From Acidobacteria bacterium RIFCSPLOWO2_02_FULL_67_21 (GTDB taxonomy: Bacteria > Acidobacteriota > Vicinamibacteria > Vicinamibacterales > UBA2999): 64,000 nucleotides of DNA. The translations under genes and the position numbers were made by a program. The stretch is from contig MEKU01000003.1 in NCBI GenBank assembly GCA_001767195.1, positions 20,710 through 84,709 on the forward strand, written 5' to 3'. How positions within the stretch are numbered: the first letter of the stretch is position 1; every line of letters begins with the position of its first letter. This document shows, one piece after another, positions 11,968 through 58,302 of this stretch. The notes beneath the pieces were generated by a model. The model was not told the DNA's origin, did no database searches, and saw nothing but the letters and a program-made list of their open reading frames with translations.

Positions 11968-12441
11968 TCAGGGACACTCTCCGGCGGACGCCTCCGTCCG
12001 CATGATGGACGATGCGCTCAACGTCACTGTGCCCCAGCTGCCGCCGAAGTAACTGGCGATGCCGCTGAGAAAGGTGACTGGATGCGGGTACGACACGTCG
12101 ACGTCGATCGTCCATGCACAGCTCGCTCCGACCGGCAGCGCCACAGGGGCACCAACACTTGCGGTGGCAAGGGACGAATCCAAACCGGCTGCGTCAAGAT
12201 ATTGGTCCACCCTCGTAATCGCATCGTCTGGCTCATAGGTCGGCAGGACCGCAATACGCGCGCCTTCCCGCGCCGCGTTCGTGACGACCTCGTACTGCTG
12301 AAACATGAACCCGAATTCGATGATCCCGAGCACCACGAGCAGCAGGAGTGGAAACGTCAGCGCGAATTCGATCACCTCGGCGCCCTGCTCATCGCGCCAC
12401 GCGCCCGTTCGCAGCCGTCGTTTCAGGGGCGAAGAAACCAT
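11968..12441 (-). CDS. TadE-like pseudopilin
   Basis: Only the C-terminal 157 aa of ORF 11968..12930 are credible: MVSSPLKRRLRTGAWRDEQGAEVIEFALTFPLLLLVVLGIIEFG is the TadE N-terminal motif. The upstream part overlaps the peptidase gene in another frame. An alternative start is at 12474. Confidence 0.75.
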   Translation of the reverse strand: MVSSPLKRRLRTGAWRDEQGAEVIEFALTFPLLLLVVLGIIEFGFMFQQYEVVTNAAREGARIAVLPTYEPDDAITRVDQYLDAAGLDSSLATASVGAPVALPVGASCAWTIDVDVSYPHPVTFLSGIASYFGGSWGTVTLSASSIMRTEASAGECP

Positions 12442-12974
12442 GCCGCCTCCGCCTGCGCCGATGAATAGCGCCATATCGTCACCACCAAGCCAGCGAGTAT
12501 CGGAACTGCATAGGCGAGGCGAGGGCCGCGACTCCCCGCCAGTGATACCTCGGGCAGCGGTCGAAACCCGGCGACTCGCCAATGCATCAGCAAGAGAGAA
12601 ATGTTCGAGAGAGCTTTCCTCAGGTATCCGTGAGACAGGCCGATGACGACTGCGAGCCCCCCCCCGATGATTCCCGTGTAGAGCGCCGTCCATACAACAG
12701 CCGCGGGACCAACCCATGCGCCAATGGCCGCGAGCAGCTTGACGTCGCCCCCTCCCAGCCCTCCGAGGGCGAACGGGATGAAGAACACAGCCGCCCCTGC
12801 CAGCCAGCCGGCAACGGAAACAAGAAGGCCCTCCCCGCGGCCAACCACCGCGTAGAAGAAGAATGCGGCCAGGGCAGCCAGAAGTGTCAGCACATTGGGA
12901 ATCTTTCGCGTCCGGAGATCCGTGACGCATGCCACCGCGGCGATGCCTAGCGCGACTATGTAAGGTGTTTCCAT
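12423..12974 (-). CDS. tadV: A24-family prepilin peptidase CpaA/TadV
   Basis: 183-aa polytopic protein with the two Asp motifs expected of the family (CVTDLRTRKIPN and GGGDVKLL). Confidence 0.85.
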   Translation of the reverse strand: METPYIVALGIAAVACVTDLRTRKIPNVLTLLAALAAFFFYAVVGRGEGLLVSVAGWLAGAAVFFIPFALGGLGGGDVKLLAAIGAWVGPAAVVWTALYTGIIGGGLAVVIGLSHGYLRKALSNISLLLMHWRVAGFRPLPEVSLAGSRGPRLAYAVPILAGLVVTIWRYSSAQAEAAWFLRP

Positions 12975-12980
12975 AAATCC

Positions 12981-13175
12981 TCAGGGTGCGGGGTCATTCG
13001 GAATCCATGCGTTGTAGACAGCTGTTCCCCAGTCGCTGAACACCACACCGATTCGGTCCTGTATCGCGGGTAAGAACGCGATCCCGGCGATCCCGATAAT
13101 CGCCGCCAGCAACCCATACTCGACCAGGTCCTGGCCGATGTCGTTTCGTATCAGGCGACGGATGATATCGGGCAT
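12981..13175 (-). CDS. flp: Flp-family type IVb pilin
   Basis: Trimmed to MPDIIRRLIRNDIGQDLVEYGLLAAIIGIAGIAF (64 aa). It has the Flp G-XXXXEY processing motif followed by a hydrophobic helix. Confidence 0.85.
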   Translation of the reverse strand: MPDIIRRLIRNDIGQDLVEYGLLAAIIGIAGIAFLPAIQDRIGVVFSDWGTAVYNAWIPNDPAP

Positions 13176-13242: not shown

Positions 13243-13410
13243 CTAACAGGTGATGGCGGCGCAGAGGCCGTCGAAGTACCCCTGGACCTTGGGACCAATC
13301 GTAAGGATGGTGGCAACCGCGCCCACCGTGATGATCCCCACCAGCAGCCCGTACTCGATCAGGTCCTGACCCGAGTCCTGAGCGACGAACCGAACCAACA
13401 GTGCCCTCAT
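13243..13410 (-). CDS. flp: Flp-family type IVb pilin (second copy, Cys-containing C-terminus)
   Basis: Trimmed to MRALLVRFVAQDSGQDLIEYGLLVGIITVGAVATIL...GLCAAITC (55 aa), with the same G-XXXXEY motif. Confidence 0.85.
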   Translation of the reverse strand: MRALLVRFVAQDSGQDLIEYGLLVGIITVGAVATILTIGPKVQGYFDGLCAAITC

Positions 13411-13582
13411 GAAACATCTCCTCCTGAAACAAGTTCCGCACCCGGCCGCTCGTCGACTCGGGCTCCGGCGCCCACTTGAGCAACGAGGCTGCCACGCCTC
13501 ACGCGGATGACGAGCGACGCTTAGCCGATGCAAGCGAAGCACTTAGTGCCTGCGGCGGCGTGCGCGTTCTTGTCCCTCAGAC

Positions 13583-14131: not shown

Positions 14132-14797
14132 TCAGGAAAGTGTTTGCAGAAGGGCGCGCCACCGCGGCAGGGCATCATCCGTGATCGACGCGCCGCAGAT
14201 CCACGTGGATTCGTCCCGCTCGAGGGTCCAGACAAGCTTTGCTGTCACAGACTGACCGATCGATACAAAATTGAGTACGACGTCTGGCGGCAACGCCCCG
14301 TCCCTGCTTACGCCAACCTCGAAGCCGACACCCCGCTCGCTGACATCCAGCACGCGCCCGGGCTTGTCCACCACGCGTATCGCCACCGGGATCACAAGGC
14401 GCCTCCGCGGTGCTGCTCGTCTCGCCGAATTCGCCGCCCCTTGCCCTTTTGCCTCCTCAAGCATCCGTGCGATCAGACTCAGAAGGGCCTCGGGAGAGAT
14501 CGGCTTCACCACGTAATCGGCTCCCAGACGCCTCGCTTCCGCTTCGAGAGTCGAATCAGTGTGTTCCATGACGACGACAGTCGGAATCGACTTTGGCGCC
14601 ATGGCGAGTACATGCAGCCCGTTCTGCATGCCGACACGAACATCAGTAATCAGGAGATCAGGGTCGGCATCCGTCATGGCCTGCATGGCGGAGGGTACAT
14701 TTCCAACCGTCACCGCCTTATAACCGGCGCCCGCAAGAAGTATCGCGAGCCTTTCGCGGGTTGCCGAATCGTCATCGACGACGAGGATCTTGGACAT
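14132..14797 (-). CDS. Response-regulator receiver fused to a PilZ domain (REC-PilZ paralog A)
   Basis: Trimmed to MSKILVVDDD. The receiver has the acidic pocket, phospho-acceptor LLITDVRV, and KP. The C-terminal PilZ has RAAPR (RxxxR) and DVSERG (DxSxxG). It is a paralog of 22350..23012 and 29831..30493. Confidence 0.85.
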   Translation of the reverse strand: MSKILVVDDDSATRERLAILLAGAGYKAVTVGNVPSAMQAMTDADPDLLITDVRVGMQNGLHVLAMAPKSIPTVVVMEHTDSTLEAEARRLGADYVVKPISPEALLSLIARMLEEAKGQGAANSARRAAPRRRLVIPVAIRVVDKPGRVLDVSERGVGFEVGVSRDGALPPDVVLNFVSIGQSVTAKLVWTLERDESTWICGASITDDALPRWRALLQTLS

Positions 14798-23458: not shown

Positions 23459-24460
23459 ATGTCACGCGTCGTAATCATGGATCAGAGTTTCGGCACTCGA
23501 CTTCGGCTCCAGCGTGAACAACAGCAGGTCAGCCTCTCAGCGGTTGCGGCAAAGACGAAGATCAAGCTCTCCTTGCTCGAAGGACTGGAGCGTGACGATG
23601 TGTCTGCCTGGCCGTTCGGCATCTTCCGTCGGGCGCACATCCGTGCCTACGCGGAAGCAGTCGGCCTAGAGTCTGATGCGGCGGTCCATGAGTTCTTGGC
23701 GCTCTATCCTGATCCCGTCGAAGTACTGCCCGCAGGGACTACCGTCTGGCCTGATCCCAAAGAGGAGTTGACGCGTCCGCAGGTTGATTCCGGATTTCGG
23801 CGTCTTGTGACCTCGGTAATGACCGCGGTTCCCACGTTTCTTCAGCGTGTGGACCGCAGCGCTCCCCTTCTTCCCGTTCTTGTTCTTGAGAAGGAACCGG
23901 CGCCTGAACCTGCCAAGCCTGCAGGCACCGAGCTCGCCTCGCAGCGCACCGCCACGGTTGAGCGCGAGCGTCCTGGTGATGTTCCAGTGCTCCCGCGAGT
24001 GGACCTGCTCGCGGTGGCGCAGTTCTGTAACCGGGTCGGACGTGCGCAATGTATGGATGAGGTTGCTGCGGTCCTTCGAGACGCCTCCATGTGCCTTGAC
24101 GCCATCGGTCTCATCGTATGGTGCTGGGACGGCGATACAACCGCCCTGAAACCTCTCTTGGCGTACGGATACTCCGATGCCACTCTCGCGCGATTTGGAT
24201 CGATTCCTCAAGACGAACAGAATGCCGTCGCCGCCGCATTTCGCTCGGCAGAACCATGCGTCGTCACAGGTTCGGACGGTCGCACTGGCGCGCTCGTCGT
24301 CCCGTCCATCGCATCGGGCAAGTGTCTCGGCGCTCTTGCTCTGGAATTTCAGGACAACAAGGAACAATGCCAGCGGGTGCATGCAGCCGCGACCATCCTG
24401 GCCGCGCAGCTGGTGCCGTGGCTCAGATGGCGACCGGTGGCCGACGCGTTGACCGCGTGA
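23459..24460 (+). CDS. HTH (XRE/RodZ-like) plus GAF domain protein
   Basis: N-terminal FGTRLRLQREQQQVSLSAVAAKTKIKLSLLEGLERDD is RodZ/HTH_25-like. The C-terminal ~150 aa (MDEVAAVLRDASMCLDAIGLIVWCWD...GALVVPSIASGKCLGALALEF) is GAF-like. An alternative start is at 23477. Confidence 0.7.
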   Translation: MSRVVIMDQSFGTRLRLQREQQQVSLSAVAAKTKIKLSLLEGLERDDVSAWPFGIFRRAHIRAYAEAVGLESDAAVHEFLALYPDPVEVLPAGTTVWPDPKEELTRPQVDSGFRRLVTSVMTAVPTFLQRVDRSAPLLPVLVLEKEPAPEPAKPAGTELASQRTATVERERPGDVPVLPRVDLLAVAQFCNRVGRAQCMDEVAAVLRDASMCLDAIGLIVWCWDGDTTALKPLLAYGYSDATLARFGSIPQDEQNAVAAAFRSAEPCVVTGSDGRTGALVVPSIASGKCLGALALEFQDNKEQCQRVHAAATILAAQLVPWLRWRPVADALTA

Positions 24461-24986
24461 GGAGCTTCGCGTTACGGCGGGGCTTTTAGGCATTCGACGC
24501 TTTTGAGTCGGCCGTGTTCTATTTCGATGCCCACCCTCCCGGAGCTTGGATGACCCGAAACCGTATCCATCGGTGTGGCAACAACTTCTCGGCGCTGGCT
24601 CCGCGGCATCCCAATTGCCGTAGTGCGCGCATCCGGCACGCGGATGACCATCCTAACTATTGTTGGACGTCGACCTCAGATGCCGCCGAATCGTGCGCGC
24701 ATCGCCACGGCGCACCTCCAGGCTGCAATTGCGCATCTCAACAATGAGGCACAGCGCCGCGTACTGAACGCCCTGCCAGGAAACGCGGGCGGTGCCGACG
24801 AGCTGCGATTGATTGTCCGGGCGTTGTGTGACGTTGTGGATGCACTTCAGCCGTCGCGCTCCGAGGCGCGGCGAGACACCGCCTGAATTAGATACTACCT
24901 GGGAACATGCTTATCCGTTGGTGCTCGGTTGTTGCCGGTTGGGCCGAATATTGTTCGTTACGTATGACTCATCTCTTCAACTGCAT

Positions 24987-26169
24987 ATGACTCAGAAGCT
25001 GTCGATGTCGCCTGCGAACCCACCACTCATCGTTGGAGAGAGCCCCGCGATACAGACTCTTCGCAATGACATCGCGCGGGCCGCCCGTTCGAAAGCCAAG
25101 GTGCTCATCCTCGGGGAGACGGGCGTTGGAAAGGAAGTCGTCGCGCGATGTATCCATGCGGGAAGCGACCGGCGCAATCAGTCGTGGGTCGCGGTGAACT
25201 GCAACGGTATTCCAGAGACGCTGCTCGAGTCCGAATTGTTTGGGCACGTGCGTGGAAGTTTTACGGGGGCATTTCGCGACAAGATTGGCCTCGTCCAGCA
25301 GGCGAACCACGGAACGCTCTTTCTCGACGAAGTCGGCGAAATGAGCCAGCGAATGCAGGCGGTGCTGCTGCGGTTCATGGAGACCGGCGAGGTGCAGCAA
25401 GTGGGCGCCCACTCTGCCGCGACCTATGCCGCCGTGCGGTTGATTGCCGCCACGAACCGCGAACTATATGCGCAGGTTGCGGCTGGCGCCTTCCGTGCAG
25501 ATCTGTACTACCGCCTCAACGTCATTCTCATCCGCGTGCCGCCACTCCGCGACCGCGGCGACGATGTGCTGCTGCTGCTGCTGCTGCTGCTGCACTATGC
25601 TCAATCAGGCCGCCCAGCTGCACGGCCTGCATTGTCCCGGGCTATCGCCCGATGCGGTCGCATCGCGTATGGCGTATCCGTGGCCAGGTAACGTCCGAGA
25701 ATTGAAGAACGTCGCTGAGCGCCTCGTGTTGAAGGAATCGAACGCATTGACAACAGCAGACGTCCCGACCGAAATCCGCCGCGGGCCCGCCCGCTTCGCC
25801 GCCGGTCACACGTACCAACCGGAGGCGCCGCCGATCGCTTCACCAGCCAGCAACGTCGTAACGGAGCGCATGGAGCAAGCCTGGCAGCGCATACGAGCCG
25901 GTGAGGATTTTTGGACGGTGGTGCAACCGGCCTTCAAGGCGCGGGAGTTCACACGAAGCGATCTTGTCTCGTTGATCGATCGCGGACTGCACGAGGCGGG
26001 CGGGAGCTATCGCGAGCTCTTGAAAGTGTTTCATCTTCCATCGGAGGAGTGCAAGCGCTTCCACTCCTTTCTCTATCAACAGCAGTGCAACCTTCCTGTC
26101 TCACAATACCGACAACAGCGTCGGCCCAGGGCGTCCGACGAATCGAAGGGCGATCAGAAGGCCTCATGA
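24987..26169 (+). pseudogene. Sigma54-dependent activator (bEBP) lacking an N-terminal sensory domain; reading frame broken at about 25599
   Basis: Two ORFs (24813..25691 and 25444..26169) together align end to end with the intact paralog 30526..31689. They carry Walker [15 protein letters not shown] (GAFTGA variant), [11 protein letters not shown] and a Fis-like C-terminal HTH. Frame 0 matches up to ...LLLLHY; frame +1 matches from LNQAAQLHGL. One extra nt lies near 25599, 6 nt after a (CTG)8 tract. An alternative start is at 25005. Confidence 0.8.
25569..25592 (+). repeat. Perfect (CTG)8 trinucleotide tract inside the bEBP coding sequence
   Basis: Read directly: GTG then CTG x8, encoding poly-Leu (DVLLLLLLLLHY). 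The paralog has only LLLLE at the same place. Confidence 0.95.
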
Positions 26170-26997: not shown

Positions 26998-28006
26998 AGC
27001 GGATTTCATGAGCCCATAGACGCCGAGCAGCGGCAATGCCGACAAGTAGTGGCGGCACTCGCCGGCTCGAAGCGCGGCAACGACGCGCCGATGTGGCCCA
27101 CAAGAGCTCGCGGGTGCGGTAGCGCGCCTTCCGCAGGATCGCTTTCAGCTTCGCAAACGCGTGCTCGATCGGATTCAGATCCGGACTGTATTTCGGGAAT
27201 ACCAGAGACTCGCGCCGGCGCTCTCAATCGCACGGCGAACCGCCGGACTCTTGTGACACGACAGATTGTCCAGGATGACGATATCGCCAGGCGCCAGCGT
27301 CGGGACCAGGATCTGCTCGATGTAGGCGAGGAAGCTGGGTCCGGCGAGGGATCCATCAAAGACGGCGGGCGCGGTGAGGCCCGCCGTCACGCCCAGAGCG
27401 ACCAGACACGTCGTGGTGCGCCAGCGTCCGTCGGACGCGTGGTCGGTCACCCGCGCGCCGTAGCGCCGCACGAGATCGGTCCGCACCCCGCTTTCATCTA
27501 AATTTAGGAAATACCAGGCGTGTGGGATCGAGCGTCGGCGCGGCCGCCTGCCACACCGTGCGGGCGAGCGCCACGTCAGCGCGATCGTGTTCGGACGCGC
27601 GTACCGTTCTTCTTAAACCGGAAGCCGAGCTGCTTGATTGGTCCGGCTGAGCGTGGGAAGACTGGCCGGGGTCCGCAGCGCCTCCTGCAATTCGGCCAGC
27701 GTGCGATCCGGCTGCTTGCGGATCAACGCTTCCAGCTGCGCGAGTTGGGCGTGGAGGATCGGCGTGCGCCAGGGCGTTTGCTTGCGCGGCGCGATCTCAC
27801 CCGTCTCGCGGCGCCGCTGCTTCAACCGATCGACCCACCCCCGACTGACGGAGTACTTCTCAGCGAGCTCGTCGGACGCGAGGCCGGCATCCGCGTCGCG
27901 CAGCACCCGCAGTCGGAGATCCATGGAGTACGCGGCCATCGGCACCTCCTGCGCGCCAGGAGTACCGCGACCGCGCACTAACCTTAGGTACGAGCACAAT
28001 CCGCTT
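26998..28006 (-). mobile_element. IS630-family insertion sequence with a degenerate (multiply frameshifted) transposase
   Basis: An N-terminal HTH ORF starts at 27939 (MAAYSMDLRLRVLRDADAGL...). DDE_3-type pieces lie in other frames ([53 protein letters not shown]). Terminal inverted repeats are AGCGGATT (26998-27005) and AATCCGCT (27998-28005), flanked by TA, the usual IS630 target. Confidence 0.85.
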
Positions 28007-28821
28007 TAGGGGCCGCCTTCTACGGCGAGCACGATCCGGTAGGGGACCGGAGAGGCGGCCCTGACTGCTGGTGTGAACGTGAATTGCTTTGCGCGGCTGA
28101 GCAACATCGCGTCGTTCATGGTCCGTGAAGGTGCCAGCAGCCGCACCCGTTCGACGATGCCCGTAGCTGATACCCACAGTTCAATGAGGCTCCTGCTCGA
28201 CAGGCCGAGTCCGGTGGCTCGCGGAGGCACGAACCCGCGCGACAGCAACTGTGGAGGCACGACGTCGACGTCGTCCTGCGAATAGGTACGGCCCTCGTCA
28301 GCTCGTACCGGCGAAGCCGCCGGCTCCGCCAGCTGACCCGCACTCGAAAGGGCGTCATCGACGTCACCAATCGTAGGGCCTGACGGCACCACGGCATGCT
28401 GCTGGATCGCGAGTGTGGGCGTGGGTGTCACCGAGCTGTGGCCTTCGGTTACGACGGACTGCGGCCGGGCTGTGGTGCGAGTTTCTGGAAGCCGGACGGG
28501 CGCCACGGGGCCTTCTCCCTGCGGCGGAAGGAGGATGTCGGGGCCCGTGGGCACTGCGGTGGCGGCAGCTGCCTCTGCGGGGGTGCTGGGTGAGGGCCGA
28601 CGGTGCATCCACCAGTTGTAGCTCACAAGGCTTACAACGGCGACGATCGCCAGACCTGCGGCAACAATCCACGCCAGCGGGCGATGCCGCGGTGTCAGCC
28701 CGGACTCGTCTTCCGCCACCGATGGAAGGTCGGGCGTACGGGGAAGTGCTTGTTCAGAGCCTGTCTCCAGAGACAGGAAAGGAACCCGGGAGGTGGGCGG
28801 CCAGGCGAAATCTTCCCGCAT
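28006..28821 (-). CDS. TonB C-terminal-domain-like membrane-anchored protein
   Basis: TM helix LAWIVAAGLAIVAVVSLVSY, a Pro-rich linker, and a C-terminal segment (VVPPQLLS...IELWVSATGIVERVRLL...AKQFTFTPAV) resembling TonB_C. The start is uncertain (28821 chosen; the ORF extends to 28986). The stop codon TAA sits on the IS630 junction. Confidence 0.55.
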   Translation of the reverse strand: MREDFAWPPTSRVPFLSLETGSEQALPRTPDLPSVAEDESGLTPRHRPLAWIVAAGLAIVAVVSLVSYNWWMHRRPSPSTPAEAAAATAVPTGPDILLPPQGEGPVAPVRLPETRTTARPQSVVTEGHSSVTPTPTLAIQQHAVVPSGPTIGDVDDALSSAGQLAEPAASPVRADEGRTYSQDDVDVVPPQLLSRGFVPPRATGLGLSSRSLIELWVSATGIVERVRLLAPSRTMNDAMLLSRAKQFTFTPAVRAASPVPYRIVLAVEGGP

Positions 28822-28989
28822 TGCCGAACGGCTGAGCAACGAGCGTACCACGCTGTTCTTCCGCTGGGCGTGCGTAGCGCGCCGCGGAACGCACGGTAAG
28901 TGCTTCCCCAGGCAGACATCTGACTGGCTGTGCTCGACTTGAACTTCGGGTGGCGCTAGCGACCAAAGCGGAACCGCAACAGCCACCAG

Positions 28990-29159
28990 CGCCCACCGCT
29001 GCTCCCCGCGCAGACTCCAGCGGCGCTGATCGTCTCGCGGCGGACGCCCGTCGTCTGCTGGATACGCGACAGCGTCCAGCCGAGACGGCCCAGTCCGAGG
29101 ATTTGCTGCTGCTTCGTGTCGTCTGCGGTCGGGAACCTACTTGAGGGATTGGCTGGCAT
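28990..29159 (-). pseudogene. Remnant of an IS21-family istA N-terminal HTH
   Basis: DDTKQQQILGLGRLGWTLSRIQQTTGVRRETIS parallels DDHKQQEIRALGRLGGTLSRIQEATGVRRETIG of the istA copy at 38537. The frame is lost afterwards. Confidence 0.65.
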
Positions 29160-29569
29160 GCAATCTGCTCCATCGGCAGATGAGAACAGACAACCCTCAT
29201 GGAGCCGTTCCTCAGCACCACCGTGTTCGTGGGCCCAGCATTCATCGCTGTAGCGGCCAGTCGGGCCATCCTCAGCCTCGTGCTGCGCGTGATAACAACA
29301 GCTGCGTTGAGCGAGGCAGACCCAGGAGCGTCCGCCGCGAGAGTGTGACGGCCACCAGGCTCCTCGTCATTCGTCCTTTACAGCATTCATCGTCACTGCA
29401 CACTATTTCGGGGGTGCGCCCTGCGCGCCGATCGATCAAAAGAAGGCAACAGACGACACGGGGATGTGACGAGGACCTGCTGCACGCAATTTGTCATTAG
29501 GGCGTCACTTTCGTTACTTCACCCTCTCACCGCCGAGAGGATTGATCCACTGGTGCTGAGACACTTGAC

Positions 29570-29585
29570 TGGCATTTGAGTTGCT
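29570..29585 (+). promoter_or_regulatory. Sigma54-type promoter TGGCATTTGAGTTGCT
   Basis: Matches TGGCAC-N5-TTGCW at 11 of the 12 specified positions, with exact GG/GC spacing. It lies 28 nt upstream of an SD-preceded ATG (29614) and next to a sigma54 activator gene. Confidence 0.65.
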
Positions 29586-29613
29586 AGCCAGCGATCACGA
29601 GGGAGGACACCTG

Positions 29614-29763
29614 ATGGAGTTCGCTATTTACGTTGCAGGCGGAACCCTCGTCATCCTCGGGATCGTGCGACGGACGGCACGCGCGCCTCGAGCGCGCATC
29701 AATGTCACTCCGTTGAGCGACCAGTGGCTTGCCGAGCAGAGACTGACGCGACACAGCTGGTAG
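29614..29763 (+). CDS. Small single-pass membrane protein (49 aa)
   Basis: MEFAIYVAGGTLVILGIVRRTARAPRARINVTPLSDQWLAEQRLTRHSW. A strong SD (GGGAGGA) lies 7 nt upstream. It sits between the sigma54 promoter and REC-PilZ C. Confidence 0.55.
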   Translation: MEFAIYVAGGTLVILGIVRRTARAPRARINVTPLSDQWLAEQRLTRHSW

Positions 29764-29830
29764 GTTGCGACGGTACGTGCGGACAGCATGCCGACCATCG
29801 GGAACCGCGAGCTACCAGCGTGAGAGCCAT

Positions 29831-30493
29831 ATGGGTCAGACCATCCTGATTGTTGAGGACGATCCGAGCACGTGCGAAGCCGAGGTCGGGTTACTGGCGG
29901 AGGCGGGCTATGACACGATCACCGCCAGCACTGTCCCATCAGCCCTCGAAATTCTGAAGACACGCCGCCCCGACCTGCTGCTCACGGACGTCCGGCTCGA
30001 CGCCTACAACGGCCTGCAACTGATCGCAATGGCGCCAGAACCGATCCCCGCGATCGTGCTCACTGGGTATGACGATCCGAGTCTCAAGGCAGAAGCGCAG
30101 CGGATGGGCGCCGAGTACCTGGTCAAGCCCGTGACGCCGACCGTCCTGCGTGAGGTCGTTGCCCGCAAGTTGGCAAGTGCGGCGCAGGCTGGCGTCTTCC
30201 GTGAGGCCAGACGCGCGCCCCGGCGACGTGTTGTGATGCCCCTTTCGGTGCAGGCGGGCACCCATGTGGCACATCTGATCGATATCAGCGCCGGTGGATT
30301 ACGCCTCGAAATACGTTGTGTGCCGGGCCAAGGGTTACCGCCATCCATATCGGTCCGGTTTGTTGCGTTCGACGTCTCTCTACGCGTCGCGGTCGTCTGG
30401 AAGCGGCGCCTCAACGACACCACGTGGATGTGCGGTGCCGCGATTGACCCAAGCGATAAGCCCCAGTGGCAACGGGTGCTCGCTACTGTCTGA
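29831..30493 (+). CDS. Response-regulator receiver fused to a PilZ domain (REC-PilZ paralog C)
   Basis: MGQTILIVEDD, LLLTDVRL, VKP. Canonical PilZ motifs RRAPR and DISAGG. Tail WMCGAAI...QWQRVLATV. Confidence 0.85.
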   Translation: MGQTILIVEDDPSTCEAEVGLLAEAGYDTITASTVPSALEILKTRRPDLLLTDVRLDAYNGLQLIAMAPEPIPAIVLTGYDDPSLKAEAQRMGAEYLVKPVTPTVLREVVARKLASAAQAGVFREARRAPRRRVVMPLSVQAGTHVAHLIDISAGGLRLEIRCVPGQGLPPSISVRFVAFDVSLRVAVVWKRRLNDTTWMCGAAIDPSDKPQWQRVLATV

Positions 30494-30525
30494 ACGGTGC
30501 CGCGTGCCGTCAGGTGGCGCCGGGA

Positions 30526-31689
30526 CTACGACGGACCGGTCCAGGACGTCTTCGGTCCCATGTACACGGGTATCGATGATCGCCTGCGTAGGTTGCGATA
30601 GGGGGCGACGGGAAGGTTCGCGCGCTGCTGGTATAAGAACGCATGAAACCGCTTGTAGTCTGACGGGGGGAGGTGAAAGAGCCTGAGCATGTCGCGGTAG
30701 TGGCCGCATGTCTCCTGAAGCGCGCGATCGATTATGCTGACCAGTTCTGCTCGTGTCAGCTCCCGTGTCTTGAACGCTTCATGCACGACGGCCCAGAAAT
30801 CTTCCCCGCTTTCAAGGCGCGCCCAAAGCTGCTGCGCCTGTTCGGTCATGCCGGTGTCCGCCATCATCGGCCGCGGCACCGAGTCCTCCGACGGCAGCGC
30901 ACCGACAATGACGCCTGTGGCGCTGGTGCCACGGATTTCGAGTTGCAGGTCCTCGGGCATTAGGGGCCCCACTCGATCCTGCAGCACGAGCCGCTCTGCT
31001 ACATTGCGCAACTCGCGGACGTTGCCCGGCCACGCGTACGTCAAGAGCAACCGGGCGGCGTCCTCGCTCAACGACGGCATCGGCAAATCATGAGCCCGAG
31101 CAGCGCACTGCAGGTAGTGTTCAAGGAGCAAGAGGACATCTTCGCCCCGCTCCCGCAGTGGGGGAACCTGGATCCGAATGAGATTGAGACGGTAATACAG
31201 GTCCTCGCGGAATGCGCCTGCGTCAATCTGGGCCCTCAGATCGCGGTTCGTGGCCGTGATCAGCCGCACATCCGTGCGGAGCGTGCCGGAATCCGACCCC
31301 ACCCGCTGCACTTCCCCCGTTTCCGCAAATCGCAGCAGCATCGCCTGCATCCGCAGACTCATTTCCCCCAACTCGTCAAGGAAGAGTGTGCCTCCGTTGG
31401 CCTGCTGGATGAGCCCCACTTTGTCGCGAAAGGCCCCCGTGAAACTGCCGCGCACATGACCAAAAAGTTCCGATTCGAGGAGAGTTTCGGGAATCCCGCT
31501 GCAGTTCACCGCCACAAACGGACAGCCCGCACGGGCGCCATGCATGTGGACCAGTCGAGCGACCACCTCTTTGCCAACGCCCGTTTCGCCGAGGATCAGC
31601 ACCTTCGCGTGGCTGCGCGCGGCTAGCGCCACCTCGGCGCGTAGTCTCTTTATCATGACACTTGCGCCGAGCAGTGATGGCCCTTGCAT
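30526..31689 (-). CDS. Sigma54-dependent activator (bEBP) consisting only of an AAA+ core and a C-terminal HTH
   Basis: The start ATG at 31689 lies 5 nt after AGAGAGG. Walker A GETGVGKE is about 30 aa from the N-terminus. Also [17 protein letters not shown] and a Fis-like HTH ([30 protein letters not shown]). No receiver, GAF, PAS or V4R region. Confidence 0.9.
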
Positions 31690-31798
31690 CAGCACCTCTC
31701 TTGTGAAGACCTTCCGACGGGAAGAGTTAGGATGAACGCCAGAGTTTCGCTCTTGAGACAGCCCAGATCAATCACGAAATGATGCCTTGTCAGTCATT

Positions 31799-32220: not shown

Positions 32221-32520
32221 TCAGGTATCGATCAGGAATCGGCACTCGTCGAACCGCACCGCGGCGACTCCTGCCGGTGTGGTGCGCACCACATCGGCGA
32301 CACACACAAGTTGGCCTGGTGGCATCGAGCCGAGCCACACCGGCGTCGAAAACACCACCTCAATGGATGCGCCGGGTTCAAGATTGGCCGGCGCAAACAT
32401 GGCGCCGGACTCGCTGATATTGATCACTCGGGCCTGCGTCCACTCGGCCTGACCGGGGCGACGGTACAGGAGCGGGACGGTCAACGTGAGGCGGGTCGCA
32501 CGCGACTGCTCGATCTGCAC
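32221..32520 (-). CDS. Stand-alone PilZ domain protein
   Basis: Trimmed to the GTG at 32520, which has GAGAGG upstream. NISESG matches (D/N)xSxxG. The N-terminal arginine motif is degenerate (RATR). It lies just downstream of the HD-GYP gene. Confidence 0.65.
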   Translation of the reverse strand: MQIEQSRATRLTLTVPLLYRRPGQAEWTQARVINISESGAMFAPANLEPGASIEVVFSTPVWLGSMPPGQLVCVADVVRTTPAGVAAVRFDECRFLIDT

Positions 32521-32540
32521 GGCCGAACCTCTCTTACGAC

Positions 32541-34148
32541 TCAGCCGATTGGCGGAGGTCCAAGCGGATAATGGAGCGCCCCGATCTGACAGAGCCGGAT
32601 GAATTCGCTCACGAGATCGCGGCGCCGCCACCCAATTTCTGCCTCATGGGCTAGTACGTGACACGCGGCCTCCGGCCCTTGGGCCGCTCGGTACGGCCGG
32701 ACTGTGGTCAGCGCATCATACGCATCGACAATCCCGACCATCTGCGCCAGTAATGAAACATCTTCACCGGAGATTCCGTCTGGATAGCCGCTGCCATCCA
32801 GGCGTTCATGGTGCTGGCGAATAATCGGTCGCACCAGCCGAAGCGTCTTCAGGTCCTGGCAGAGATGCTCCCCGATTTGCGTATGCCGTTTCATGACATC
32901 AGGCTCAGCGGATGTCAGCGGGCCGGCTTTGAGCAGGATCGCGTCCGGCAATGCGACCTTGCCAAGATCATGCAGCACTCCCCCGCGCCTGAGGGCCACC
33001 ACCTCGTCCGATGCGAGTCCGAGGTGCGTCCCAAAGATGCCTGCATACTGGGTCATCCGATCGCAATGGCCGGCGGTGTACGGATCCCGCGCTTCGATGG
33101 TGCGCGCCAGGGTTGCCAAGATCGTGTCCGCGGAATCGAGGTCATCGGTGTAGCGCTTCAGGCGAATCAACGACCGCACTTTCTGGATCAGTTCGCCGGA
33201 GCAAACCGGCGTGCACAGCACGTCGGTTGCCACGGCCTCGATGCCGAGGAGTCGCGCCTCCTCGTTCCTGTCGCCGATCAGCACGACCGGCACGAACCGG
33301 GCCAGTGGATCATCCCTCAGCCGCGCACACAGCTCCGCGCCAGCGCTCCCGGCGTCGCTGATCACCACGTCTGGCGTCCGCTGCCGAACAATCTCCAACG
33401 CCTCCCGCTGGTCCTGAGCAGCGTGCACGACGTAACCGCAGGCATGCAGCAGCCCGCCAACCCGCGCTCGGTTGTGAACGTCGCCCACCACCACGATCGT
33501 TCCAGCTGGGTGGTTGCCCCCGTCCGATGATCGTGGACCAGAACGCACGCCGGCGCCGTGGAGCGTCGTCTGTGCCACGGGTCTGGGTCTGCTCTGCCCG
33601 TCCATTCGAGGGCGATGCCGGGGGACCTGGTTGGCGTGCGGATCGATGAGGAGCCGAAGCGCATACCCACTCGGCATGCCCGTCGCCGCGCTGGAAGACA
33701 TGATCCGGTACACCGCGGCCATGACGTATCCCCTCCGCAGTGCGGCCGGTAGATTCGCACGATCGTGTTCGGTGGGCTCCAGATGAAGATGGACCAGGCG
33801 GTGCAGCGGAATGAAGGCGGCTCCCCGGCATTCGACAAAGACGTCATATTCACTGACGTTCCGGGTGATCACAGGCACGTGGCGCACCGCACCCCGACCG
33901 TCTCGCCACCGGAGCCACCCGGGGACGGCAATTCGGTGCCGCTGCCCACGGCGGGACTGGTACGGGGCCGGCGCTGACGAACCGACGTCCATCGGTCCAC
34001 CACGGCGCGCAGAGAGAGGCCTTTCGGGAGCCCGCTCGCCGTCGGACTCGGGCATCACCATTCGAACGCTTTTCCGTCGTTTCCGCACGTGACCGGCTGC
34101 TGTGGACATGCATCTCGGGTGTCCGCGGAACGGCGGACCGGACACCAT
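32541..34148 (-). CDS. PilZ-like plus receiver plus HD-GYP domain protein (putative c-di-GMP phosphodiesterase)
   Basis: HD-GYP core HDLGK...HHERLDGSGYP. Central receiver (DVVISDAGS...). N-terminal RRGQR...NVSEYD is PilZ-like. The start codon is uncertain. Confidence 0.85.
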   Translation of the reverse strand: MVSGPPFRGHPRCMSTAAGHVRKRRKSVRMVMPESDGERAPERPLSARRGGPMDVGSSAPAPYQSRRGQRHRIAVPGWLRWRDGRGAVRHVPVITRNVSEYDVFVECRGAAFIPLHRLVHLHLEPTEHDRANLPAALRRGYVMAAVYRIMSSSAATGMPSGYALRLLIDPHANQVPRHRPRMDGQSRPRPVAQTTLHGAGVRSGPRSSDGGNHPAGTIVVVGDVHNRARVGGLLHACGYVVHAAQDQREALEIVRQRTPDVVISDAGSAGAELCARLRDDPLARFVPVVLIGDRNEEARLLGIEAVATDVLCTPVCSGELIQKVRSLIRLKRYTDDLDSADTILATLARTIEARDPYTAGHCDRMTQYAGIFGTHLGLASDEVVALRRGGVLHDLGKVALPDAILLKAGPLTSAEPDVMKRHTQIGEHLCQDLKTLRLVRPIIRQHHERLDGSGYPDGISGEDVSLLAQMVGIVDAYDALTTVRPYRAAQGPEAACHVLAHEAEIGWRRRDLVSEFIRLCQIGALHYPLGPPPIG

Positions 34149-37002: not shown

Positions 37003-37944
37003 ACTGCTCCGGGTCTGCTATTGAAATTGAAGTGGGCTACCGCTCACCCGATCCGGTCGGCTGGCGGCTGTTGATCCCTGGGTGACTCCCGCAGGACAAA
37101 CGTCACTCACCTCCCATCTAGCGGGAGGTTCGGGTGGCATTTCTAGAGATCGGCAGAAACACTCCTGGAATTTCAGAGAGTTCCGCACGGAAGGAGATGC
37201 GGCGGTTGCTGATTACCATGCGGTTAAGGCCATCTTTGCATCTGGGCGTCGTCTGGCAGGGGCTTTGCTCGGCCAGGATTCAGGCGTGATGAACTCTCTT
37301 CAAAGCGTGTGCGCGTTCCAAAGGGGGATTACCATCGACGGCGTCGCGGCACGGCAATCCGCGCCCAGTCACGCCGGGGACACTCCCCTCCGCTGGCTTG
37401 GGCTCCTTGCAGCGGCGCTATCAGGCATCCTTAGCGGCTCACTGCTCGTGACGATCGGATGGTTCGTGAGTTCGTGGCGTGGCGGTCGAATCGTCGGACT
37501 TGTTTTGGTGGGACTTGGGGCGGCCGGCCCCATACTCACTGTGGCCGCAGTTACCGCAGTTCAGACCGCACCAAAACTCCAGCGTCCATAAACTCGGTGC
37601 CGCGAATCCTGCTGAACCACGCAACTGACGCCGATTCGAAGAACAGCGCGATCTCGCTCCAACTTGGAACGATCAGGGACGCCAACGCCCGTTGCATTCG
37701 ACGACACCCTCAAGTAATCCGTTAATCACGTCACCTATCTACCGTAATCGGGTGCCCTTCGCTCGAAACGTGCCCATAACGTTTCAGCGATTCTGTGACC
37801 GGCATCGAGGTCCGCCACGACCCCCCTTCGTCGATGGCTTGCCGCTTTCAGCTCCCACTTCTTGCGGGCGTAGAACGCAGCGATGATCTTCTAAGATCCA
37901 GCAAGTCTGCGTCTTGCGGCGTCGACGACACTCGACAAGACGAT

Positions 37945-38625: not shown

Positions 38626-39349
38626 TTGCGGGCGTCGCGGACGCCAGTGGGATTGAACTTCTTTCATCCCAAATGGTTGAGAACCTGCAGCCGGGGTGGC
38701 AACCTTCACCCATCAGCCACACCAATCGTCGACAAAGACATTTCACGGATAAGTCTGATTGTCTCCAGATTCCTGAGTCGGCCTCACGCCACGCGTCATG
38801 GTTTGCAGCAGCACTCGCGATGGCAGCGCCATTGCTCACAACCCTTCTGTGGCCGATTGCATTTCCGATATCAAGCGTCGCATGGCGTTGCTCGAACTGT
38901 TATCCATAACGGATGCGGCAGACGCACGCCGCCGCCGTCGCCATGTTAGTTCTTCAGGGACGCCCGATCGACATGAACAGGTACCAGCGATCGTAGCGGC
39001 GTACGTGCAAATGAGGCTGAGCGAATTGCATGAACGGGAAATGCTTCGCCACGCAAGGGAATCATGAACAAGCTGCTGCGGCTGTGTCTCGCGTGCATTT
39101 CTATCTGGCATCGTGAACGCGAAGATTGGCTGATGGAAGGCGGGATGCCGCGGTGAGAGCGTCCAGCACGATTTCTACTCACGCCAGCATGGGCCACACG
39201 GACTGATATTCATCACTTGCACCCCTCCATCCGCGCGAGAGTGCCGAGCATACGCCGCTCGCGCTCTCGCGTCCCGCCTCGGGAGTGTTCCGCGCGAATC
39301 CCATCGAGCCCACATGTGGGGACTGTCTCCCGATTCGGCTGCGCATGTG

Positions 39350-46836: not shown

Positions 46837-47324
46837 CGCTGTCTATCATAGGCCCGCTGGACTAACGTCGCGCTTGAAATGCATTGTTGACCTTCGTCCC
46901 GGGTTGATTCCCCGTAGTGCCGTCGCACGCCCGCTCCCGAGCCGAACCTCCTCGATTACTCCTCATAGGGTTGACCAAACATCACAGCTCCAGCTGCTAC
47001 ACCTTGCCTACCGGAGGGCGAAAAGATGGCGACCCTGTACACGGAGTTCGGCGTTTCCCGGAAGACCAAACCGTCGGAGCCTCCAGCCTCAGGAAATCGG
47101 TAGAGCACCTTACTATATCTGTCCCCGGAGGCAGAATTCTGTGCCAGTCGGCGGATGATCCGGAGCTCCTTGAAATCGGTAACCGCCGCTCGGCCGCGCA
47201 CTTACGGAGTGGAATGAACGATGGCAAATCTCTTGCAGGATGAGCTTGACTGCCCCGTTGGTCAACACGGTTGCCGGTTTGCGACGGGATGCTTACCACC
47301 GGCACATTGAGCGTGAGCGTTCCT

Positions 47325-49541
47325 ATGAATACCGGCCGCATCATTCGAACAGCCGCCGTCGTGGTCGCGATGGCGTTCGTTGGCAACGCCCTGTTGGGCC
47401 CGGTCACTGGCATGGCCCAGGTGCAGAGCAGCCGCCAGCCGACGGTGATGCAACCCAACCGCACCGACGTCTCTCAGCCCGTGCGTGACCTTCCAGTACG
47501 GCCGTCGAGGCCCGTGATTCTCGGCTCGATCTTCGAGCGCCCGTTCAAGCTCTTGCCGAATCGTCGGGGTAGCCCCGAAACCGATGTCTTCGATGGCGCG
47601 GTACAGAGCGTTGGCCCTGGCGTCGGTACTCCGACCGTCCTGAACGGCACCGAAGGCATCGGCAATGCAAACGGCGTGCTGCCGCCAGACCCCAACGGCG
47701 CCATAGGGCCAAACCACTATGTCCAGATCGTGAATCTCTCGTACGCCGTTTATGCGCGTGACCCAGCTGATCCCCAGCACTTGACGAAGGTGTACGGGCC
47801 TGTCGACAACAGTACGCTCTGGAGCGGCTTTGGCGGTCCCTGTGAGAACAATAACGACGGCGATCCGATCGTGCTCTACGACCAGTTGGCCGATCGGTGG
47901 CTGCTGAGCCAGTTTGCGCTGCCGAACTTTCCGTCGGGTCCGTTCTACGTCTGTATCGCCGTCTCGCAAACGGGCGATCCCCTGGGCGCGTACTACCGGT
48001 ACGAATACACCTACAGTCAGTCCATTCTGAACGACTATCCGAAGTTCGGCGTGTGGCCCGACGGGTATTACATGACGGCGAACCAGTTTCAGTGCGTCTT
48101 CATCTTTTGCTCGTGGGCGGGCCAGGGGGTGGTCGCTTTCGAACGGGAGCAGATGCTTCAGGGCGGTCCCGCGCGTGGCGTCGGCTTCAGCCTCTATTCG
48201 ATGGATCCGAATCTCGGAGGCATGCTGCCTGTCGACCTGGATGGCCAGCAAGTGCCACCCGTCGGCATGCCGGCCCCCTTTGTGCAAGTCGACGATGACG
48301 ACTGGGGCTACTCGCCCGATCAGCTCCAACTGTGGGAGTTTCACGTCACCTGGAAGGGCGATCTGCGGAAGACGTCGACGTTCCGCCACGTGGCCAATCT
48401 CCCAACGGCGGCCTTCAACTCGAACATGTGCGGGTACGTCCGGAATTGCATCCCGATGAAGGACGGGACACCCGTCGACGCCATTTCCGACCGGCTGATG
48501 TTCCGGCTCCAGTACCGGAACTTCGGAGCTCATCAGACCCTCGTCGTGAATCACACGGTGGACGTGGATGGGACCGATCGTGCCGGCATCCGCTGGTACG
48601 AGCTGCGCAACGCGGGCGGCGGCTGGAGCACTTACCAACAGGGCACGTATGCACCCGCCACCGACAGCGACCATCGTTGGATGGGCAGCATCGCCATGAA
48701 TGGAGCTGGCGATCTTGCGCTGGGCTACTCGCGGTCGAGCGCGACGACGTATCCGTCCGTCGCGGTGACCGGTCGGCTGGACGGCGACAGCGCGGGCGCC
48801 ATGACGCAGGGAGAGAGCACGCTCGTGGCCGGTAGTGGGTCCCAAACACACAGTTCCGGCCGGTGGGGCGACTATAGCGCCATGACGGTGGACCCGCGTG
48901 ACGACTGTACGTTCTGGTACACGCAGGAGTACTACGCCACGACGAGCGTGGCATCGTGGCAGACAATTATCGGCTCGGTCAAGCTGCGTGACTGCGGCGT
49001 CCTGCCTCCCACGGACACCGAGTCCCCAACGGTTTCCATTGCTGCGCCTGCCGGGAACTCCACCGTGTCAGGCACAGTCCTGGTGGCAGCGGACGCCACC
49101 GACAATGTGGGCGTGACGAGCGTCGAGTTCTACGTAGACGGCAGTCCCGAGGCGACCGTGGGTTTCCCCTATCAATGGTCCTGGGATACCACCCAGGTCG
49201 CCGACGGACCGCACGGCCTGGAAGCGAAGGCCTACGACGCCGCGGGCAACTCGGCCACGTCCGACCCGATGTCGGTCGGCGTCGACAATAGCACTCCCGC
49301 GGCCATCACGCTGTCGGTGAGCGCATACAAGGTGAGGGGGCAGCAAAAGGCAGACCTGACCTGGAGCCGCGCGACTTCCAGCGAGGTCAACGTCTACCGG
49401 GGTGGCGCCGTCGTCGCGACAACGGCCAACGATGGCGCCTACACGGACAACATCGACCAGAGAGGTGGAGGCAGCTACACGTACAAAATCTGTGAAGCGG
49501 GCACGAGCACCTGCTCGAACGACGCGGTTGCGAGTTTCTGA
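47325..49541 (+). CDS. Large secreted protein with C-terminal Ig-like and FN3-like domains
   Basis: Trimmed to MNTGRIIRTAAVVVAMAFVGNALLGPVTGMAQ (signal peptide). The C-terminus has ESPTVSIAAPAGNSTVSGTVLVAADATDNVGVTSVEFYVDG (bacterial Ig-like) and a final KADLTWS...YTYKICEAGTSTCSN module. The long antisense ORF is compositional. Confidence 0.75.
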   Translation: MNTGRIIRTAAVVVAMAFVGNALLGPVTGMAQVQSSRQPTVMQPNRTDVSQPVRDLPVRPSRPVILGSIFERPFKLLPNRRGSPETDVFDGAVQSVGPGVGTPTVLNGTEGIGNANGVLPPDPNGAIGPNHYVQIVNLSYAVYARDPADPQHLTKVYGPVDNSTLWSGFGGPCENNNDGDPIVLYDQLADRWLLSQFALPNFPSGPFYVCIAVSQTGDPLGAYYRYEYTYSQSILNDYPKFGVWPDGYYMTANQFQCVFIFCSWAGQGVVAFEREQMLQGGPARGVGFSLYSMDPNLGGMLPVDLDGQQVPPVGMPAPFVQVDDDDWGYSPDQLQLWEFHVTWKGDLRKTSTFRHVANLPTAAFNSNMCGYVRNCIPMKDGTPVDAISDRLMFRLQYRNFGAHQTLVVNHTVDVDGTDRAGIRWYELRNAGGGWSTYQQGTYAPATDSDHRWMGSIAMNGAGDLALGYSRSSATTYPSVAVTGRLDGDSAGAMTQGESTLVAGSGSQTHSSGRWGDYSAMTVDPRDDCTFWYTQEYYATTSVASWQTIIGSVKLRDCGVLPPTDTESPTVSIAAPAGNSTVSGTVLVAADATDNVGVTSVEFYVDGSPEATVGFPYQWSWDTTQVADGPHGLEAKAYDAAGNSATSDPMSVGVDNSTPAAITLSVSAYKVRGQQKADLTWSRATSSEVNVYRGGAVVATTANDGAYTDNIDQRGGGSYTYKICEAGTSTCSNDAVASF

Positions 49542-57857: not shown

Positions 57858-57873
57858 TGGTACACGCCTTGCT
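57858..57873 (+). promoter_or_regulatory. Candidate sigma54 promoter TGGTACACGCCTTGCT
   Basis: Matches TGGCAC-N5-TTGCW with one substitution and exact spacing. It lies 76 nt upstream of the TPR gene start (57949), in the dprA-TPR intergenic region. Confidence 0.45.
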
Positions 57874-57948: not shown

Positions 57949-58302
57949 ATGCGTCCCTCCTGGCTGCTCGCGGCGCTGCTCCTGACCCTCGGCTCGGCCC
58001 CGCTCGCGGCCGACGCACGGAGCGACGCCCACAAGCAGGTCGAGTTCGGGATCGCCGTGGCGCAGCGCGGGCTGTGGCGCGAGGCGATCTACCGCTGGGA
58101 GCGGGCCGTTCAGATCGATCCCTCGTACGCCGCGGCGCACAACAACCTGGCCATCGCGTACGAGCACGAGGGCGAGCTCGACAAGGCGCGCACTGCGTAC
58201 GAGAAGGCGATCGAGCTCGAGCCGAACAATACGTTCATCAAGCAGAACTACGAGCTGTTCAAGGAAATCAATGACCGCACCACTCGCCAGGACACTCAGT
58301 AG
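57949..58302 (+). CDS. Small secreted TPR-repeat protein
   Basis: Signal peptide MRPSWLLAALLLTLGSAPLAA. Two or three TPR units (AAAHNNLAIAYEHEGELDKARTAYEKAIELEPNN). Confidence 0.8.
   Translation: MRPSWLLAALLLTLGSAPLAADARSDAHKQVEFGIAVAQRGLWREAIYRWERAVQIDPSYAAAHNNLAIAYEHEGELDKARTAYEKAIELEPNNTFIKQNYELFKEINDRTTRQDTQ

Follow-up and report, generated by a model that had tools for sequence, protein, structure and literature searches.

The consensus TGGCAC-N5-TTGCW is shared by canonical sigma-54 promoters, among them glnAp2, nifH and Pu. The Psp system of enterobacteria comprises PspF, PspA, PspB/PspC and PspG. In Myxococcus xanthus, MXAN_2902 is a bacterial enhancer-binding protein (bEBP) with a fused PilZ domain which, according to prediction, does not bind cyclic di-GMP (c-di-GMP), and PixA is a PilZ-receiver response regulator, encoded by an orphan gene, that regulates motility polarity (PMC8316039). 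We analysed a 64,000-nucleotide (64-kb) stretch of DNA from Acidobacteria bacterium RIFCSPLOWO2_02_FULL_67_21 (contig MEKU01000003.1, positions 20,710 to 84,709), hereafter the window. An earlier note made from its sequence had described a near-consensus sigma-54 promoter, TGGCATTTGAGTTGCT, ahead of the gene for a 49-aa membrane miniprotein and of the gene for REC-PilZ C, a protein with receiver (REC) and PilZ domains, with a bEBP gene as the convergent neighbour. Our analysis indicates that TGGCATTTGAGTTGCT is likely to be a functional sigma-54 promoter driving a real miniprotein gene. It also indicates that this promoter very probably belongs to the miniprotein family and not to the REC-PilZ gene that follows it in this genome.

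The locus resembles the Psp system in having a bEBP without an N-terminal sensor domain, hence controlled in trans, in its predicted use of sigma-54 promoters to drive small single-pass membrane proteins, and in having a soluble partner that could link the membrane protein to the bEBP. It differs in that the C-terminus of its bEBP shows no Fis-type helix-turn-helix (HTH) and in that its soluble neighbour, a REC-PilZ protein, is a putative receptor for c-di-GMP. No PspA-like gene was found among the neighbouring genes examined, the whole window not having been scanned for one. In FleQ, VpsR and MXAN_2902 alike, an AAA+ activator of the sigma-54 type is coupled to PilZ or c-di-GMP sensing; in MXAN_2902 the two are fused in one protein, whereas here they are encoded by neighbouring genes and the PilZ domain resides on a separate response regulator. 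PixA resembles REC-PilZ C in being a stand-alone response regulator that combines a single PilZ domain with a single receiver domain and lacks a DNA-binding output, but its domain order is PilZ-REC instead of REC-PilZ, and no link to a miniprotein or a bEBP has been reported for it. We regard MXAN_2902 and PixA as precedents for a link between REC-PilZ proteins and bEBPs, not as evidence for such a link here.

The element TGGCATTTGAGTTGCT occupies positions 29570-29585 of the plus strand, with GG at 29571-29572 and GC at 29583-29584 (10 nt between them), and agrees with TGGCAC-N5-TTGCW at 10 of the 11 specified positions, the deviation being a T for C at −21. It is intergenic and points at the miniprotein gene, the ATG of which lies 29 nt past the motif. 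Between the two is a Shine-Dalgarno (SD) sequence, GGGAGGA (29601-29607, plus strand), that starts 16 nt after the motif and ends 6 nt before the ATG at 29614. The canonical spacing, the match at all but one position and the placement of the SD sequence, as described in the earlier note, could all be read directly. With C29584 taken as −12, standard sigma-54 geometry places the predicted transcription start at 29594-29598 on the plus strand and predicts a leader of ~17-20 nt. Thus, in the separation and agreement of its GG and GC elements, its intergenic position, its orientation and its proximity to a gene, TGGCATTTGAGTTGCT is like the canonical promoters, as is the presence of a conserved element ~100 nt upstream, the usual enhancer position.

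When the window was searched for TGGCAC-N5-TTGCW with at most one mismatch, 8 matches were obtained compared to 1.52 expected, and none of 100 shuffled sequences reached 8. Both GG and GC were kept in 7 of these matches, and at least 4 of the 8 preceded plausible start codons. From the excess of matches and their placement before genes, the source genome appears to use consensus-like sigma-54 promoters, with TGGCATTTGAGTTGCT among the better-placed examples. Two bEBP genes encoding GAFTGA-like loops are also present in the window. As ~1.5 matches are expected by chance, a lone match such as TGGCATTTGAGTTGCT would be unremarkable by itself; the window as a whole is enriched in sigma-54-like motifs, and the decisive support for TGGCATTTGAGTTGCT is comparative.

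The ATG at 29614 opens a 49-codon open reading frame (ORF) extending to 29763 on the plus strand (MEFAIYVAGGTLVILGIVRRTARAPRARINVTPLSDQWLAEQRLTRHSW), the product of which has an N-terminal transmembrane helix, a basic stretch and a conserved C-terminal helix containing TPLSDQWLAEQR. The gene was not called in the NCBI record of the source genome; such genes are often skipped by gene callers. A word-indexed protein search found only the identical protein, as would be expected of an orphan, a view that was overturned by an exhaustive phmmer search of 1.84 billion representatives, which identified 5 relatives of 47-52 aa (best E 4.5e-12, 60% identity). A profile search brought the family to at least 49 proteins, mostly of 45-60 aa, with five longer calls of up to 97 aa. 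All members share the N-terminal hydrophobic helix, the basic stretch and a C-terminal (D/N)VxPVS(E/D)(R/Q)WLAEQR motif; S35, W38 and L39 of the miniprotein are invariant, and R23, A40, E41 and R43 are identical in more than 85% of members. The GC content by codon position of the miniprotein gene (0.62/0.52/0.72) resembles that of REC-PilZ C (0.69/0.48/0.72). An AlphaFold2 (AF2) model built with the family alignment contained helices at residues 2-23 and 36-48 (pLDDT 75). Thus, the single-pass membrane peptide proposed in the earlier note has a conserved family behind it.

Searches of Pfam, NCBIfam and the PDB with 43 members gave no significant match, the best being scattered single hits with E values of 0.001 or worse. 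A literature search for the motif WLAEQR found no paper, and tblastn found no match in a plasmid collection. As for the small membrane proteins of the Psp system, the window miniprotein matched neither PspB nor PspC models in Pfam or NCBIfam, and one of the 43 members gave a weak match to NCBIfam PspB (E 0.017). Homology to PspB was rejected, as hhalign comparison of the family profile with E. coli PspB returned a probability of 0.6%. From its conservation we conclude that the miniprotein represents a real, previously undescribed family of predicted membrane proteins of ~48 residues. Because positive charges follow the transmembrane helix, the positive-inside rule predicts an N-out/C-in bitopic protein with the conserved helix in the cytoplasm. 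A cytoplasmic partner presumably docks at this near-invariant helix, PxSxxWLAEQR.

In the closest relatives, miniprotein genes come as a tandem pair (locus L109, 401-559 and 720-866; locus L124, 1921-2076 and 2133-2282); only the second gene of the pair is present in the window. Upstream of the promoter, a hydrophobic ORF of 49 codons (29199-29348, plus strand) has a syntenic tblastx match of 49% identity in L124 (1667-1783), likewise ahead of the miniprotein genes. As the opposite frame obtains a similar score, this ORF is a candidate coding sequence only.

The promoter comparison comprised 10 miniprotein gene starts from unrelated contigs, including that of the window, with loci L118 and L120 counted as one. 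The 60 nt upstream of each start were scanned for a GG-N10-GC element with at most two mismatches, using a background of 354 kb. Six of the 10 starts had the element no more than 35 nt from the start codon, whereas 0.05 were expected (P = 2e-11, or 3e-9 when the orthologous first genes of L109 and L124 were counted once). In addition to TGGCATTTGAGTTGCT, with its ATG 29 nt from the motif end, these were TGGCACCACTGTTGCC and AGGCACAGCGGTTGCT of the second and first L109 genes (33 and 16 nt, respectively), GGGAACAGCCGTTGCT of the first L124 gene (16 nt), GGGCACGAGCGTTGCC of L110 (18 nt) and AGGCACGGCCGTTGCC of L118/L120 (27 nt). Each tandem gene of L109 has its own element; in L124 only the first gene does. 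SD sequences were present where the motif and the ATG were 27-33 nt apart (GGAGG in the second L109 gene and in L118) and absent at 16-18 nt. Blastn alignment of the window with L109 and L124 was confined to the 3' half of the miniprotein coding region, and the N5 spacers differ among the elements. As the flanking sequences cannot be aligned and the spacers differ, the elements are conserved for their own sake. The proposal that a sigma-54-type promoter precedes the miniprotein gene was therefore strengthened by equivalent elements before five other family members.

The window is also matched by contig MELD01000076.1 of "Acidobacteria bacterium RIFCSPLOWO2_12_FULL_67_14" (GCA_001767515.1) and by near-identical metagenome contigs. 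Population copies of the exact locus (L001-L012 and L029) were 99.7-100% identical, with all differences outside the promoter and the ORF.

A hidden Markov model (HMM) of the miniprotein family was run on six-frame translations of all loci. A second subfamily of ~50 aa (...RFELG(T/S)VSQQWLLGH(R/K)) was found, encoded directly downstream of REC-PilZ on the same strand. It is present in 15 non-redundant loci with distinct sequences, or 19 contigs before de-duplication (L063, L064, L066, L067, L074, L076-L079, L082, L083, L091, L093, L098 and L106; e.g. L067 2948-3141). These genes are preceded by a conserved CTTGAT/CTTGCG-N17-TAT(T/G)(T/G)T sequence followed ~9 nt later by a GTG start codon, which suggests a sigma-70-like promoter and a leaderless mRNA. 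As TTGATC-N17-TATTTT is below the threshold of the promoter scanner, the sigma-70-like assignment is drawn solely from this conservation. Separately, ORFs of ~38 aa were observed on the opposite strand ~80-100 nt after REC-PilZ, in convergent orientation (L087, L094, L096, L103, L104, L105 and L108). Their matches to the miniprotein HMM are weak (E 0.005-0.4) and fall in its transmembrane and basic part; these ORFs could be a third class of small ORF or noise.

Upstream of TGGCATTTGAGTTGCT lies a conserved box, GCAATTTGTCA (29486-29496, plus strand), at about −110 to −100 from the predicted transcription start. When sequences were anchored on the −24 element, a box of the form [GC]CAA-N2-4-TGT[AC][AT] was present in all 6 sigma-54-type miniprotein promoters and ended 54-86 nt upstream of this element (73 nt in the window and in L118, 72 and 54 nt for the second and first L109 genes, 86 nt in L110 and 55 nt for the first L124 gene). 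This pattern occurs 21 times in ~707 kb on both strands, and 6 of the 21 are the miniprotein promoter sites. Because the pattern was defined after the data had been viewed, the box is a tentative candidate for a bEBP-binding enhancer; that it serves as the enhancer of the miniprotein promoter is possible, with the balance tilting somewhat the other way. The earlier note had suggested a different activator site, the dyad CCTCTC-N6-GAGAGG. The dyad exists, although at 29523-29540 and not at about 29524-29541 as described, and is too short to be reported by the repeat finder. It was rejected as an enhancer, as it is not conserved: in the five other sigma-54-type promoter regions of miniprotein genes that were read, nothing comparable was seen at the corresponding position, a reading that did not include a dyad-specific scan. 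An Rfam search of 28800-30000 gave no match to a known leader RNA or riboswitch.

Taken together, these features suggest the following mechanism. Sigma-54 RNA polymerase would bind the GG at 29571-29572 and the GC at 29583-29584 as a closed complex, and an AAA+ enhancer-binding protein, perhaps bound at GCAATTTGTCA ~100 nt upstream, would open this complex by ATP hydrolysis. Transcription would begin near 29596, and the 17-20 nt leader would supply the GGGAGGA sequence for translation of the miniprotein.

The gene for REC-PilZ C (220 aa; 29831-30493, plus strand, start codon 29831-29833) follows on the same strand. The earlier note had placed it 68 nt after the miniprotein gene; the arrangement stands, with a gap of 67 nt and a start at 29831 in place of 29832. 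Pfam searches identified a Response_reg domain (E 4e-17) and a PilZ domain (E 1e-6). The PilZ domain scored 29.4 bits against a cut-off of 22.5, and the translation contains RxxxR (RRAPRRR) and DxSxxG (DISAGG) motifs, as expected of a putative c-di-GMP receptor. About 260 homologues were obtained at E 1e-10 or better, with alignments beginning at residue 1; a GTDB genome scan with REC-PilZ C returned generic receiver domains only. We examined 80 metagenome loci with REC-PilZ genes and three more; the neighbourhood counts refer to 75 non-redundant loci. The earlier note had taken the promoter as direct evidence that the REC-PilZ/bEBP modules operate on sigma-54 promoters, a proposal that this comparison did not support as worded. 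No sigma-54-like motif was found within 450 nt upstream of ~78 other REC-PilZ homologues beyond the same-strain copy, the conserved region upstream of the tandem bEBP-REC-PilZ operons is a different one without the motif, and the miniprotein gene with such a promoter also occurs far from REC-PilZ and bEBP genes.

The convergent neighbour of REC-PilZ C encodes a bEBP of 389 aa (30526-31695, minus strand), in which Pfam and NCBIfam searches identified a Sigma54_activat domain (E 4e-63) with a GSFTGA loop. In the longest possible ORF, this AAA+ domain begins at residue 9, so that the protein has no N-terminal sensor domain, in agreement with the description of this neighbour in the earlier note. 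The C-terminal domain is conserved but had no Pfam HTH match and a single PDB sequence match at E 0.1, and its assignment as a Fis-type HTH was therefore rejected. A single-sequence AF2 model (pLDDT 61) was too low in confidence for a fold search. Homologues of the bEBP are 389-430 aa long, are 55-75% identical and have the same C-terminal domain. They adjoin REC-PilZ in 25 of the 75 non-redundant loci, mostly upstream in tandem and in some cases convergent, and a miniprotein gene is near REC-PilZ in 17 of the 75; only in the window do the two associations coincide. Miniprotein-like sequences are also found 1.2-1.5 kb from the two closest homologues of REC-PilZ C, intact in L031 and possibly degenerate in L023. 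The neighbourhood of the three gene types is thus non-random: REC-PilZ is the hub of two links, whereas the sigma-54 promoter is a property of the first miniprotein subfamily.

Several observations weigh against the reading of TGGCATTTGAGTTGCT as a sigma-54 promoter serving this locus. The window lacks rpoN. Of the family gene starts compared, 4 of 10 have no element: L031 has none; the second L124 gene, 56 nt behind the first and probably operonic with it, has none; L126 has a near-miss with TTGT replacing TTGC; and L127 has a sigma-70-like TTGAAA-N17-CATACT instead. As the second subfamily apparently uses a sigma-70-like promoter as well, sigma-54 control would be a subfamily trait. In three of the six cases the motif is only 16-18 nt from the ATG, which implies leaders of 5-7 nt and near-leaderless mRNAs; this is unusual and differs from canonical sigma-54 promoters. 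Because copies of the exact locus are at least 99.7% identical, the locus itself carries no evolutionary or selection signal. The scan upstream of REC-PilZ homologues returned 1 sigma-54-like match compared to ~3.9 expected, REC-PilZ does not follow the miniprotein genes of L109 and L124, the closest homologues, and no bEBP gene lies within 3-4 kb in L110, L118, L126 or L127. If TGGCATTTGAGTTGCT were a chance match to the consensus without promoter function, the miniprotein gene would be transcribed from another signal. The number of such matches expected in 64 kb and the insertion-sequence remnants flanking the region are compatible with this explanation, but five other family members are preceded by the same element at the same position although their flanks cannot be aligned, and no alternative sigma-70-like promoter was found. 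We therefore consider a chance match highly improbable.

If TGGCATTTGAGTTGCT is a functional sigma-54 promoter, it could serve the miniprotein gene alone. A long hairpin (29755-29822, plus strand) begins at the miniprotein stop codon and ends 9 nt short of the REC-PilZ C start, and the region 29740-29850 has a folding energy of −41.1 kcal/mol (z = −2.2); this hairpin could be an attenuator, a terminator or a stabiliser. Termination or attenuation there would leave REC-PilZ C to its own unrecognised promoter or to weak read-through, which would be consistent with the L118 miniprotein gene also being trailed by a strong hairpin, with the miniprotein gene being a stand-alone unit with its own promoter elsewhere, and with REC-PilZ homologues lacking a sigma-54 promoter. 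However, the hairpin has no U tract, scans of 28700-30700 called neither a canonical terminator nor a sigma-70-like promoter, whether in the 67-nt gap or within the miniprotein gene, and the two genes share a strand and are separated by a short gap. A promoter for the miniprotein alone is thus a substantial possibility, albeit not the one we would favour. Co-transcription of REC-PilZ C from the sigma-54 promoter, by reading through the hairpin, seems to us evenly poised between true and false.

As for the activator, the bEBP could be encoded elsewhere, in which case the convergent bEBP would have other targets and no local loop would exist. L110, L118/L120 and L124 have the same type of promoter with no bEBP gene in the 3 kb flanks that were read, tandem bEBP-REC-PilZ loci lack a miniprotein gene, and the C-terminus of the bEBP has no recognisable DNA-binding domain and a low-confidence structure model. 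Against a distant activator, 17 kb of the window accommodate three REC-PilZ paralogues, the miniprotein gene and two bEBPs from a single family, and both the miniprotein and this type of bEBP have neighbourhood links to REC-PilZ. We place a distant activator only a little below an even prospect, and we likewise hold only tentatively that the neighbouring sensor-less bEBP activates TGGCATTTGAGTTGCT, a proposal about which doubt slightly prevails. As the bEBP gene is convergent, it cannot be transcribed or directly autoregulated from the TGGCATTTGAGTTGCT promoter. The autoregulatory loop raised in the earlier note is hence not indicated directly; hypothetically, any loop would run via REC-PilZ C acting on the bEBP. 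A more elaborate proposal is that the miniprotein, REC-PilZ and the sensor-less bEBP form one undescribed signalling module in soil Acidobacteria. The miniprotein helix would dock REC-PilZ, REC-PilZ would be the detached sensor of the bEBP, integrating phosphorylation and c-di-GMP, and the bEBP would activate the miniprotein promoter. We consider this module unlikely as a whole; if real, it would be a Psp-like feedback circuit wiring c-di-GMP and membrane state to sigma-54 transcription.

While the promoter itself is of a textbook type, its cargo is new: a conserved, unannotated family of predicted membrane proteins of ~48 residues. This family appears to have its own regulatory signals, i.e. 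a sigma-54 promoter with an upstream box in one subfamily and an apparent sigma-70-like leaderless promoter in the other. It is also tied by neighbourhood to REC-PilZ proteins, which are tied in turn to a distinctive sensor-less bEBP. The locus thus offers an entry point for studying the links among c-di-GMP signalling, two-component signalling and sigma-54 transcription in uncultured soil Acidobacteria, and would contribute a clear example to the expanding set of small membrane proteins with regulatory roles.

Other sigma-54-like motifs of the window were also inspected. TGGCAGCCTCGTTGCT (13479-13494, minus strand) is 69 nt ahead of the first gene of a pair encoding Flp-type pilins (13243-13410 and 12981-13175, both minus strand) that heads a Tad pilus locus (TadE, 11968-12930; secretin, 9607-11031), and the gene for REC-PilZ A (14138-14788, minus strand) is just upstream of this motif. 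TGGTACGCTCGTTGCT (28835-28850, minus strand) precedes, at a distance of 14 nt, the ATG for a membrane protein of 271 aa (28006-28821) that has a weak TonB-C-like end and a start disputed among gene callers (271, 281 or 326 aa). TGGTACGCTCGTTGCT and TGGCATTTGAGTTGCT would form a divergent pair of sigma-54 promoters ~735 bp apart. On the plus strand, one-mismatch motifs were found at 47222-47237, 88 nt before the gene for a secreted Ig-domain protein (47325-49541), at 57858-57873, 76 nt before a TPR lipoprotein gene (57949-58302), and at 37254-37269 and 38821-38836, ahead of short unannotated ORFs.

With respect to the bEBPs, the tandem bEBP-REC-PilZ operons of L038, L042, L043, L045, L049 and L052 contain CTTTCATATTGTAGAAAGTCTGCCTG-N3-CAGGCAGACTT ~30-110 nt upstream of the bEBP start. 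This region is highly conserved, includes two inverted repeats and no sigma-54 motif, and is probably an operator or promoter. The second sensor-less bEBP gene of the window (24813-26169, plus strand) is split by a frameshift of one base that directly follows a (CTG)9 leucine tract (repeat 25567-25593). It is a single 400-aa gene in another assembly of the same population, such that the frameshift could reflect a pseudogene, a polymorphism or an assembly error.

Upstream of the convergent bEBP gene and on the same strand are genes for a stand-alone PilZ protein (32221-32631, minus strand) and a REC-HD-GYP-type (HD_5) protein (32541-34148, minus strand), making this neighbourhood a c-di-GMP signalling cluster; a REC-HD_5 gene is also found near a REC-PilZ homologue in L024/L025. 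Just upstream of the miniprotein locus are fragments of an IS630-type transposase (DDE_3) and an HTH remnant (27175-27999 and 28956-29159, both minus strand), which indicate that the region was rearranged by mobile elements. Finally, cytoskeleton-type genes recur near these modules: an HTH_25 (RodZ-like) gene overlaps the miniprotein stop codon in L127 (4001-4794), another HTH_25 gene (23459-24460) lies between the genes for REC-PilZ B and the second bEBP (bEBP B) in the window, and a bactofilin gene (1012-1572) is upstream of the miniprotein genes in L124.

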